From the NCBI GenBank assembly GCA_001004885.1, contig LCRX01000009.1, forward strand, positions 1,459 to 65,458: 64,000 bases of DNA, in the 5' to 3' direction. Shown in pieces: positions 14,991 to 60,018 of the stretch (the first letter of the stretch is position 1; each line of letters starts with the position of its first letter). Both the position numbers and the translations under genes were made by a program. The stretch is from Candidatus Magasanikbacteria bacterium GW2011_GWA2_56_11. Its GTDB lineage: Bacteria > Patescibacteriota > Patescibacteriia > Magasanikbacterales > UBA922. The notes below the pieces were generated by a model that had not been told where the DNA came from, ran no database searches, and saw nothing but the letters and a program-made list of their open reading frames with translations.

Positions 14991-15642
14991 GTCCAAGCCT
15001 AAAGAAATTCCCTACAACTGAAGATTTTCCCAAGTCTTAACCGACCGCTCCGGCTGGGCCGGGGCCGGGTAAAGAAACTAGGAAGAGAGAAGAGCAACCC
15101 GATTAGTAGGTTTCTCTTTTTTCTTTTGGGGGAGTGCGATCTTTACAATTTATAACAAGCAAACAACGGTAAAACCGGCACCAAATGGTGCTGGAGGTTC
15201 ACATTATAAACGTGACAAGAACCAATTCCAACGCAAGTTGGAGATCGTCTATTCTAGTATAGGAATCAACCTCCTCTGGAGCTAGTCTCCAGGGAGTTTC
15301 TCATTGTCCTTCGGGACTTTATTGAGAGTTTGATCCTGGCTCAGGACGAACGTTGGCGGCGTGTTTAAGGCATGCAAGTCGAGGGATCGGCCGTAGCAAT
15401 ACGGTACGGACCGGCAGACGGGAGAGGAACACATTGGCAACCTACCTTCGAGACGGGGATAGCCCCGGGAAACCGGGATTAATACCCGATGGTCATGGGG
15501 GGACATAAGTCATTCCCATGTAAATCATTTCTGGCTCGAAGAGGGGCCTATGCCCTATCAGCTAGTTGGTGAGGTAATAGCTCACCAAGGCTACGACGGG
15601 TAGGGGACGTGAGAGCGTGACCCCCCTCACTGGGACTGAGAA

Positions 15643-15673
<31 letters not shown>

Positions 15674-15807
15674 AAGAATCTTCCGCAATGGACGAAAGTC
15701 TGACGGAGCGACGCCGCGTGCAGGATGAAGCCCCTCGGGGTGTAAACTGCTTTTATAGGGGACGAATTTGTGACGGTACCCTATGAATAAGAGGTTGCTA
15801 ACTCTGT

Positions 15808-16673
15808 AAGCCCAAACCGGGCCTGGTGCAGAGTGATTGTGGTAACACAGTCAAAGAAAATCTCGCTATATGCTGGAAACTTCTGTTAATGGCACACTAC
15901 CTAAAAACGGTGACAATGTGTGTCAAACCCAAAAAAACGTACTACCGCACGTATAGGGGTTGCAGAACAATCAGCAGGAAACCGCAAACTACAACCGGTT
16001 TGCGGGCTCCTCAGAGACTACACGCGAGACTCCCGAGTTAGTCGGGATGATGATATAGTCCAACGAGCTCTTCATATGAAGGCAGAAGTGAAAGAAATAG
16101 TAACCGCCTCGCTTTTAGGTGATGGTTGGTTGACGGAATTGAAGCCGAGAACAGGAACCGCTATGTACTATGTGAAATATCATGGTCGTAGCCGGGATTA
16201 TCTGCAATGGCTTCACGGACAAGTTCGCGAACTTGGTCCTTCTGAACTGAAGGAAGTCGCGCGCTATGGTCAATATTATTTCTACACGAAAGCCCGAACA
16301 GACATCGGCGAACTAAGAAAACTTTTTTACCCAAACGAGGGAAGAAAAGTGATTCCGCGAAATATCCGCGAACTGCTATCTACGCCCAAAGCCTTGGCCA
16401 TTTGGTACCAAGACGATGGAACATTAGATAAACGGTCGCGTGATCATTGGAATGCAATGTTCGCTACGTATTGTTTTGGTTATGAAGAGTGCGAGCTGCT
16501 TGCGAAAACACTGAAAGATAACTTCGACCTGGCTGTATCGGTTTGCCGATGCCAGATGCGGGGTAAAATGTATTATCGGCTTTATGTGCGATCCCAAAGT
16601 ATGAATAACTTCATACGACTCGTACAGCCGCATATACACCCATCATTCAGTTACAAAATTTCGCTTAACAATG
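15808..16673 (+). mobile_element. group I intron in the 16S rRNA (866 nt) carrying a homing endonuclease ORF
   Basis: Exon 1 ends ...CTAACTCTGT (terminal U); the intron ends ...AATG (terminal G); exon 2 resumes GCCAGCAGCAGCGGTAATAC. Confidence 0.7.
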
Positions 16674-16690
16674 GCCAGCAGCAGCGGTAA
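16076..16690 (+). CDS. LAGLIDADG homing endonuclease (two-motif, intron-encoded)
   Basis: LLGDGWL and WYQDDGT LAGLIDADG motifs; the ORF reads through the 3' splice site into exon 2. Confidence 0.8.
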   Translation: MKAEVKEIVTASLLGDGWLTELKPRTGTAMYYVKYHGRSRDYLQWLHGQVRELGPSELKEVARYGQYYFYTKARTDIGELRKLFYPNEGRKVIPRNIRELLSTPKALAIWYQDDGTLDKRSRDHWNAMFATYCFGYEECELLAKTLKDNFDLAVSVCRCQMRGKMYYRLYVRSQSMNNFIRLVQPHIHPSFSYKISLNNGQQQR

Positions 16691-17636
16691 TACAGAGACC
16701 TCAAACGTTGTCCGGATTCATTGGGCGTAAAGCGTCCGCAGGTGGCATGGAAAGTCAGGGGTCAAAGCTTCCGACTTAATCGGAAATCTGCTTCTGATAC
16801 TTCCAAGCTAGAGGTTGTGAGAGGCACACGGAACTGCCGGTGTAGTAGTAAAATGCGTTGATATCGGCAGGAACACCAAAGGCGAAGGCAGTGTGCTGGA
16901 ACAATCCTGACACTCAGGGACGAAAGCGTGGGGAGCGAATGGGATTAGATACCCCAGTAGTCCACGCCCTAAACTATGTGTACTAGGTATATGGAGTATC
17001 GACCCTCCATGTGCCGTTTAAAAAAGCTAACGCGTTAAGTACACCGCCTGGGGAGTACGGCCGCAAGGTTAAAACTCAAAGGAATAGACGGGGACCCGCA
17101 CAAGCGGAGGATCATGCGGCCCTTAAGTGGGGTAACGAGCGCAACCCTCGTTGTGTGTTACATTGGACACACGAGACTGCTCGCGCAAGCGAGAGGAAGG
17201 TGGGGACGACGTCAAATCAGCATGGCTCTTACGTCCCGGGCGACACGCATGATACAATGGCCAGTACAAAGGGTTGCCAAGCCGCGAGGTGGAGCTAATC
17301 CCATAAAGCTGGTCTCAGTTCGGATTGCAGGCTGCAACTCGCCTGCATGAAGCTGGATTCGCTAGTAAACGCGCATCAGCCACGGCGCGTTGAATACGTT
17401 CTCGGGTCTTGTACTCACCGCCCGTCACACCACGAAAGTTGGCAATGCCCGAAGGCTCTCGTTCGAGGGACGAAGGCAGGGTCAATGATCAGGGTGAAGT
17501 CGTAACAAGGCATCCGTAGCGGAAGCTGTGGATGGATCACCTCCTTTCTGGAGTTACTCTCGGGAAACCGAGTGAAACTACTAACGAGTACAAAAAGAGT
17601 AGATGATCGGTTTCTTGTCACGTTTATCGTGTGAAT

Positions 17637-17667
17637 TAAAAACAGCCCTGTGGAGGGCTGTTTTTTG
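17637..17667 (+). terminator. rho-independent terminator just after the 16S (aacagccctg...cagggctgtt plus TTTTTT)
   Basis: Perfect stem plus T6. Confidence 0.6.
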
Positions 17668-17671
17668 CGCC

Positions 17672-59929: not shown

Positions 59930-60018
59930 GGCGGAGAGAGTGGGATTCGAACCCACGAGGGACTTTCATCCCTACCTCGTTAGCAGTGAGGCGCTTTCGG
60001 CCACTCAGCCATCTCTCC
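59930..60018 (-). tRNA. tRNA-Ser (anticodon GCU) with a long variable arm
   Basis: Reverse complement GGAGAGATGGCTGAGTGG...CTGCTAA loop...GTGGGTTCGAATCCCACTCTCTCCG; class II variable arm. Confidence 0.85.

Follow-up and report, generated by a model that had tools for sequence, protein, structure and literature searches.

The locus

The window examined here, the whole 64-kb stretch of contig LCRX01000009.1, encodes EF-Tu and TrmD proteins identical to entries of Candidatus Magasanikbacteria bacterium GW2011_GWA2_56_11 (KKW42215.1 and KKW42218.1). It carries a 16S rRNA gene on the forward strand (15318-17547), in which two Rfam small-subunit pieces (RF00177, SSU_rRNA_bacteria) flank an insert of 866 nucleotides. 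This insert is very probably a mobile group I intron, inserted directly behind U516 in this bacterium's single 16S rRNA gene, and its 3' part is occupied by an open reading frame (ORF) for a LAGLIDADG homing endonuclease. The main features of the locus are the following:

15318-15807, + strand: 16S rRNA exon 1, ending with U516; RF00177 409.8 bits; joined to exon 2 in intron-less relatives
15808-16673, + strand: group I intron, 866 nucleotides, from A15808 to the terminal G16673; RF00028 50.7 bits, E 6.4e-10
16076-16690, + strand: homing endonuclease ORF, 204 amino acids; LAGLIDADG_2 / I-SceI type; PF03161 E 8e-33
16674-17547, + strand: 16S rRNA exon 2, starting with G517; RF00177 708.7 bits; without about 131 nucleotides at 17119|17120

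Insertion site and exact boundaries

A sequence-only reading of this DNA had claimed that the 16S gene is split by 866 nucleotides after GT, near E. coli position 516, with a U at the end of the upstream exon and a G at the end of the intron. Direct reading of the exons bears this out at T15807 and G16673. Specifically, exon 1 terminates in ...GCTAACTCTGT (over an alternative length, ...GGTTGCTAACTCTGT) at T15807, exon 2 opens with GCCAGCAGCAGCGGTAATAC at G16674, and the insert between them (15808-16673) has A as its first and G as its last base. The universal 515-533 stretch GTGCCAGCMGCCGCGGTAA is thereby broken after GT, i.e. between U516 and G517 in E. coli numbering; we take the split point to be position 516 on the basis of the standard 515F primer site.

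Relatives without the insert define the same boundaries. A metagenome scan with a 34-mer probe from the 3' half of the window 16S gene retrieved eight related 16S loci. In the intron-less relatives L091, L096 and L097, which are 84-89% identical to the window over exon segments of 400-490 nucleotides, CTAACTCTGT|GCCAGCAGCAGCGGTAATACAGAGACCTCA is continuous across the insertion point, and the L091 allele reads CTAACTCTGTGCCAGCAGCAGCGGTAATAC. The exon alignment that the earlier reading had proposed as a check gives the same answer, as BLAST alignments of the window 16S gene to these three loci break precisely at 15807|16674. Because intron-less relatives carry the joined flanks, the boundaries are exact and not estimated. 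These loci represent intron-less alleles, and hence the presumed homing site. The same intron furthermore occurs on independently assembled contigs from two other samples, in one case 100% identical (L087) and in the other 99.9% (L088), and both copies are contiguous with the upstream trmD gene. The intron also differs from its exons in GC content (0.456 vs 0.542).

A group I ribozyme core under selection

A covariance-model search for group I introns, a check suggested in the sequence-only reading, returns a match at the gathering score of the Rfam model. RF00028 (Intron_gpI) aligns to 15798-16084 over the full model (1-253), with an expectation value (E) of 6.4e-10 for the whole window and all 4227 Rfam families, and of 9e-12 locally. 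Relatives at the same site reach 56-78 bits with this model, and a 75-nucleotide extension of P5, aligned as an insert in Rfam, probably lowers the score of the window copy. Between 15780 and 16700, Rfam reports the group I match and no other family at E up to 1. A bulge-helix-bulge (archaeal) intron, a group II intron and an intervening sequence removed by RNase III were set aside as candidates, the group I match being the only one in Rfam. The elements of the ribozyme are as follows:

15802-15833, + strand: P1; exon CUCUGU (15802-15807) and A15808 pair with the internal guide sequence U15827-G15833
15811-15813/15819-15821, + strand: small P1 extension hairpin
15823-15827, + strand: guide strand of P10, CUGGU; its partner is GCCAG of exon 2, G16674-G16678
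15835-15852, + strand: P2 hairpin; 7 pairs, 6 of them changed on both sides in the family
15861-15866/16024-16029, + strand: P3; compensatory changes in 5/6 pairs
15872-15876/15971-15975, + strand: P4, within P3; invariant
15881-15886/15962-15967, + strand: P5, within P3; compensatory changes in 6/6 pairs
15887-15961, + strand: P5 extension, 75 nucleotides
15976-16011, + strand: P6/P6a, within P3
16014-16061, + strand: P7; G16014 and G16016-A16020 pair with U16056-C16061, with A16015 bulged
16031-16036/16042-16047, + strand: P8, enclosed by P7 along with P3'; 4 double-changed pairs
16048-16055, + strand: J8/7
16069-16082, + strand: local P9 hairpin (CUCUUC AUAU GAAGG), from the Rfam alignment and the sequence; the ATG of the ORF lies in its loop and 3' strand

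The covariation test used an alignment of the ribozyme portions of nine related introns and scored 58 modelled pairs over P1, the P1 extension, P2, P3, P4, P5, P6/P6a, P7 (treated as a pseudoknot) and P8. In the window, all 58 modelled core pairs, from P1 to P8 and including P7, are standard. Across the nine introns, 92.9% of alignment cells pair, against 38-46% when the partners are slid by 1-3 columns; 35 of the 58 pairs show changes on both sides, and none of 500 shuffles reaches the observed pairing and covariation values. Most compensatory changes are located in P3, P5, P2 and P8, and P1 and P6 covary too. P4 and P7 never vary in the aligned introns (P7 in 9/9) and therefore carry no covariation signal. 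The ribozyme fold is under selection. Taken together, the RF00028 match, the complete set of core pairs and the covariation in the family support the group I intron that had been claimed from the letters, and a core structure of the P1-P9 type is detectable within 15808-16673.

Several details add to this picture. U15807 faces G15828 in P1, forming the U-G wobble at the 5' splice site. Relatives with exon CUACGU instead of CUCUGU (L014, L016 and L018) have the guide GCGUAG or ACGUAG instead of GCAGAG. The loop of P2 is a GNRA tetraloop (GUAA in the window, 15842-15845), which is found in 13 of 14 aligned relatives; L016 is an aligned relative without an alignable P2. By likeness to the G264-C311 pair of Tetrahymena, we take G16016-C16060 to be the guanosine-binding site. 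Three further features are reminiscent of the Tetrahymena intron (IC1): the sequence GAUAUAGUCC of J8/7-P7, the A bulged out of P7 and the A-rich P5 extension. With regard to IC1 traits, the intron has no P2.1, and the ORF occupies the place of the P9 domain.

An I-SceI-like endonuclease that ends in exon 2

The ORF runs from ATG 16076 to the TAA at 16688-16690, 17 nucleotides past the 3' splice site; this TAA belongs to the universal GCGGTAA of exon 2. Both claims that the earlier reading had made about the ORF thus hold, namely passage through the 3' splice site and a protein with two LAGLIDADG motifs. The first motif, LLGDGWL, covers amino acids 13-19 (16112-16132) with D16 as its acidic residue, and the second, WYQDDGT, covers amino acids 110-116 (16403-16423) with D113/D114. 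G15, D16, D113, D114 and G115 are invariant in an alignment of 19 sequences (A1), and the second motif aligns with the MDDGG motif of I-SceI. The protein matches Pfam PF03161 (LAGLIDADG_2) over profile positions 2-168 of 168, scoring 114.2 bits where the cut-off is 25 (E 8e-33), and has 80 database relatives at E up to 1e-39.

Structure prediction points in the same direction. I-SceI is the best sequence match among solved structures (E 1e-11), and an AlphaFold (AF2) model built from 19 homologues has a mean predicted local distance difference test score (pLDDT) of 92.3 and a predicted template-modelling score (pTM) of 0.88. In Foldseek searches of the PDB, I-SceI (1r7m) and I-WcaI (6x1j) rank best, with template-modelling (TM) scores of 0.76-0.78 over about 205 columns. 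According to this model, the protein is a monomer with two LAGLIDADG motifs and a predicted pseudo-dimeric alpha/beta fold like that of I-SceI. The C-terminal NGQQQR has a pLDDT below 50, and its last five residues, GQQQR, which the model shows as disordered, are encoded across and beyond the 3' splice site. This tail is missing in most homologues, whose ORFs end at or just before the splice site; read-through to the TAA of the exon nevertheless recurs in P0010, P0017, P0034 and L013-L016 as well as in the decayed copies L010 and L039.

The endonuclease gene is foreign to its host in base composition, with a GC content at third codon positions of 0.45 vs 0.63-0.77 in neighbouring host genes. 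In GenBank, the intron ORF is KKW42216.1, named "LAGLIDADG homing endonuclease" and read as 256 amino acids from GTG 15920, with an N-terminal part (15920-16075) that crosses the region from the P5 extension to P9. We reject GTG 15920 as the true start, since the extra 52 residues lie in the ribozyme core and are unconserved, and homologues start at the position of ATG 16076. A role of the protein as a putative maturase is possible.

The location of the stop codon has consequences for expression. Because it lies in exon 2, normal termination is possible only on the unspliced precursor or on a full-length intron circle, in which a stop is reached after 11 extra codons. The exon 2 stop would then tie endonuclease synthesis to the unspliced state of the pre-rRNA.

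Predicted splicing and homing

The proposed route to a mature 16S rRNA would follow the canonical group I mechanism. The pre-rRNA would adopt the P1-P9 core fold, and an external guanosine would then attack after U15807, held in place by the wobble with G15828 in P1. Subsequently, the terminal G16673 would move into the guanosine site of P7, and P10 would position exon 2, so that ligation would bring back GUGCCAGCAGC in the 530 loop. Downstream of P7, the intron is wholly devoted to the 204-amino-acid enzyme, which starts in the P9 hairpin and stops in exon 2. For homing, the enzyme is expected to cut the intron-less 16S gene at ...CTAACTCTGT|GCCAGCAGC..., with recombinational repair then copying the intron in; the predicted cleavage site reads CTAACTCTGTGCCAGCAGCAGCGGTAA.

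At the 3' end, P10 consists of 5 uninterrupted pairs that adjoin the P1 part of the guide on its 5' side, and 5 pairs are likewise present in L017 and L018. The last intron base, G16673, is the terminal guanosine (omega G). In L003, L005 and L012, RNAduplex finds a 7-base-pair long-range helix, AGUUAAA/UUUAACU, with one strand shortly after P7 and the other shortly before the 3' splice site; the helix encloses the ORF as a giant P9 loop. The same comparison of the region 3' of P7 with the intron 3' end gives nothing convincing in the window, L001 or L007, and in place of the long-range helix, the window and L001 have a short local hairpin whose loop contains the AUG. As no convincing long-range P9 is found in the window, the choice of the 3' splice site is left to P10 and the terminal G alone, and these two elements appear to define it. 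An unconstrained minimum-free-energy fold of the whole intron with its flanks yields alternative pairings, such as exon 2 with a P4 strand, and was discarded as uninformative on the 3' end.

The intron family and its irregular junctions

Related loci are widespread. At least 576 occur in GTDB species representatives; among the matches listed, most of 80 loci bear titles from Patescibacteria, also termed the Candidate Phyla Radiation (CPR), and about 30 GTDB loci adjoin GCCAGCAG..GCGGTAA, which is the same 16S site. In three close relatives, six of six fetched loci carry a group I core directly upstream of the ORF and inside the 16S gene.

Introns at this site come in two architectures. In type A (the window, L001, L003, L005, L007 and L012-L017), the ORF starts 8-27 nucleotides after P7 and reaches the 3' splice site; in type B (L020, L024, L029 and L030), an internal ORF is followed by about 115-150 nucleotides of ribozyme core. 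The presence of both types at the same site, with related LAGLIDADG_2 enzymes, suggests that either the ORF or the RNA has been reshuffled. Decayed ORFs also occur at this intron site, with 152 amino acids in L009, 49 in L010, 133 in L018 and 78 in L039, and represent stages of homing-endonuclease decay. Intact, decayed and intron-less alleles at one site are what is classically seen for a homing element passing through gain, decay and loss. As a separate observation, L001 (4106-4876) and L005 (3012-3234 and 3704-4333) have additional group I introns, with ORFs of the LAGLIDADG_2 or LAGLIDADG_3 type, at downstream 16S positions, unlike the window 16S gene, which contains a single intron.

The splice junctions of the family are less uniform. 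The canonical S516 arrangement, an intron with A as its first base and G as its last, followed by GCCAGC, is found in the window and in L009, L010, L017 and L018. No fewer than ten relatives (L003, L005, L011-L015, L019, L020 and L031) have A or C, not G, in front of GCCAGC; nine of these ten demonstrably begin the intron with G, paired to a guide C, and the 5' end of L031 is unplaceable. L024 is an exception, with A both at the intron start and before GCCAGC, and L016 fits neither splice-site rule, with U516-A in P1 and the junction ...CTC|ACCAGC. P7 is invariant in the four aligned irregular relatives (L003, L005, L012 and L013), and their guanosine-binding helix is thus unchanged. The irregular relatives cannot satisfy the rule of a U at position -1 facing G and that of a terminal G together while retaining G517.

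Read at the DNA level, this pattern is consistent with a mature rRNA that requires G517, and suggests that certain relatives may splice one nucleotide downstream (S516 to S517), where the 5' site would be a G-C pair, or depart from a canonical rule in another way; a non-G terminal nucleotide or a 16S rRNA without G517 are the alternatives to such a slide. That splice sites slide within the family and that endonuclease synthesis is coupled to unspliced RNA through the exon 2 stop is, as a joint proposal, speculative and in our view rather doubtful. If the irregular junctions of the relatives hold at the RNA level, they bear on the question of how strict natural group I splice sites are.

The host 16S gene and alternative explanations

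Exon 2 lacks about 131 nucleotides at 17119|17120, corresponding to E. coli ~947-1083 and roughly to helices 31-36. The missing segment includes the universal GCATGGYTGTCGTCAGCTCGTG and is present in 8/8 relatives that share the flanking 34-mer; the gap lies between ATGCGG and CCCTTAAGT, and the full segment would be expected to read TTTAATTCG...GTGAGGTGT. Since a search of the whole window with the GCATGGYTGTCGTCAGCTCGTG pattern, allowing up to three mismatches, gives no match, the 16S gene is not a split gene with its missing piece nearby. On the left, two independent contigs end at 17096 and 17116; on the right, two others begin at ~17276 and ~17405, and none of the four covers the junction 17119|17120. 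The gap is therefore probably an assembly or scaffolding join.

Other properties of the gene concern its processing and decoding centre:

15198-15221, + strand: 16S processing stem, 5' arm; forms with 17612-17635 a 24-nucleotide inverted repeat, 92% complementary
17612-17635, + strand: 3' arm of the 16S processing stem; other half of the 24-nucleotide inverted repeat around the gene

We assume from the general organization of rRNA operons that this 24-nucleotide stem serves RNase III-type processing. A hairpin followed by a T run (about 17640-17668) is seen after its 3' arm. Within the 530 loop, the pseudoknot of 15796-15798 with 16681-16683 (E. coli 505-507/524-526) pairs as UGC/GCA in the window, UAC/GUA in L003 and GGC/GCC in E. 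coli. This compensated change accounts for the unusual GCAGCAGCGG in exon 2 and, as a pattern of sequence change, argues for a functional rRNA.

Five points weigh against a functional mobile intron. The RF00028 score barely passes its threshold (50.7 vs 50), and the loss of about 131 nucleotides of essential 16S sequence, if real, would make the gene a pseudogene. No convincing P9.0 or long-range P9 returns G16673, 590 nucleotides downstream of P7, to the core of the window intron. No Shine-Dalgarno sequence precedes ATG 16076, and the excised linear intron, lacking an in-frame stop, would be a non-stop mRNA.

The first two of these points could be accommodated by a dead relic, i.e. an intron that no longer splices and resides in a 16S pseudogene, with a functional 16S gene elsewhere in the genome. 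Such a relic would not be expected to keep all 58 core pairs, the U-G wobble, the terminal G and P10 intact, together with an uninterrupted endonuclease ORF that retains its catalytic residues. The processing stem around the gene and the compensated UGC/GCA pseudoknot, typical of functional rRNA, speak against it as well, and the independent contigs that break at 17096 and 17116, just 5' of 17119|17120, suggest an assembly join. A single rRNA copy is, moreover, usual in CPR genomes (PMC11270868). We therefore consider a relic highly improbable.

Another explanation is an intervening sequence that host RNases of the RNase III type cut out without ligation, leaving the 16S rRNA in two pieces and the group I likeness as a vestige. 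Fragmenting intervening sequences are known in bacterial 23S genes, and many CPR insertions fit neither intron model (PMC11270868); some relatives' junctions, furthermore, conflict with at least one of the two canonical splice-site rules. The window intron, however, obeys both rules and has a P10, no long stem closes the insert, and the extensive compensatory change in the family indicates that the ribozyme fold is under selection. A cut within the 530 loop, a part of the decoding centre, would presumably also be hard to tolerate, and fragmentation of this kind has only the slimmest probability here.

A foreign intron mis-joined into the 16S gene during assembly can practically be dismissed: 16S regions are assembly-prone and this gene has one probable assembly defect, but identical junctions and intron on the two independent contigs L087 and L088 from two samples, contiguous with trmD, show that the intron is not an assembly chimera, and its internal guide is complementary to the organism's own exon sequence on both sides.

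Relation to known introns

The mobile group I intron at U516 belongs to a class that is already described. As cited in PMC11270868, Brown et al. 2015 found that CPR rRNA insertions are group I-like, encode LAGLIDADG proteins and are absent from transcripts. According to the same text, Tsurumaki et al. 2024 surveyed 380 CPR 16S genes, 48% of which have insertions, and reported group I introns at several hot spots with LAGLIDADG_2 ORFs of about 210 amino acids. The window intron falls into this class, being an insertion of at least 100 base pairs that encodes a homing endonuclease. It shares the host clade with the insertions of both studies, the window genome, one of the GW2011 set, comes from the study in which such insertions were first described, and the intron resembles the published ones in its position in a conserved 16S region, its group I-like RNA and its LAGLIDADG_2 ORF of similar size. 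Related enzymes at one site in distant hosts, and ORF-less or decayed copies, are likewise features of both the published insertions and the window family. There is no difference in kind between them, and the element of the window is a correctly identified, known kind of element in a published genome, a clear textbook case with good support and not a discovery. The available text of PMC11270868 does not describe the details of P1 and P10, an ORF located 3' of P7 or a stop codon in exon 2; it gives no numeric positions for 16IS4-7 and 16IS10, and S516 is unmatched to a named site.

The enzyme I-ShaI from the 23S rRNA of Ca. Shapirobacteria, which cuts its own insertion site, comes from a CPR rRNA group I-like insertion with a LAGLIDADG enzyme, as in the window. 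Unlike the window protein, it is a LAGLIDADG_1 single-motif homodimer, encoded mid-insertion in a 23S gene (PMC11270868).

Eukaryotic nuclear group I introns, of the IC1 type and associated with His-Cys box enzymes, classically occupy position 516 as well (PMC9223047, PMC1464144). These S516 introns, for instance in myxomycetes and in Naegleria (Nae.S516), have an insertion point identical to that of the window intron, are self-splicing and often mobile, and undergo cycles of homing-endonuclease gene gain, decay and loss (PMC9223047, PMC1464144). The eukaryotic introns are IC1 with His-Cys box enzymes and some of them are twin-ribozyme introns, whereas the window intron is bacterial, with a LAGLIDADG_2 ORF after P7. 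Position 516 appears to have been used independently by eukaryotic introns with another endonuclease family, which illustrates that conserved rRNA sites attract mobile introns.

On the protein side, I-SceI (from the omega intron of the yeast mitochondrial 21S rRNA gene) and I-WcaI belong to the PF03161 family, as does the window enzyme. All three are two-motif monomers of about 200-235 amino acids, and each has its gene in a group I intron within an rRNA gene. The window enzyme differs in its sequence, with an identity of about 20-23%, in its predicted target, 16S position 516 and not the large-subunit rRNA gene, and in its bacterial host. Self-splicing group I introns, some with LAGLIDADG ORFs, have reportedly also been described in bacterial 16S genes by Salman (2012, in PNAS; cited in PMC3984707 and PMC11270868), and are said to lie at other insertion sites, not known to include 516, and in another host phylum than the window intron.

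These results have practical and evolutionary implications. As the intron splits the 515F primer site itself, many CPR 16S genes escape PCR surveys based on this primer. Additionally, the intact, decayed and intron-less alleles at one site illustrate the cycle of homing in a group of bacteria whose rRNA genes are single-copy.

Other features of the window

In the other 46 kb of the window, Rfam finds neither a 23S nor a 5S gene, and the rRNA genes are therefore unlinked. An ordinary tRNA gene of 87 nucleotides with a long variable arm is located at 59932-60018 on the minus strand (Rfam 56.7 bits).

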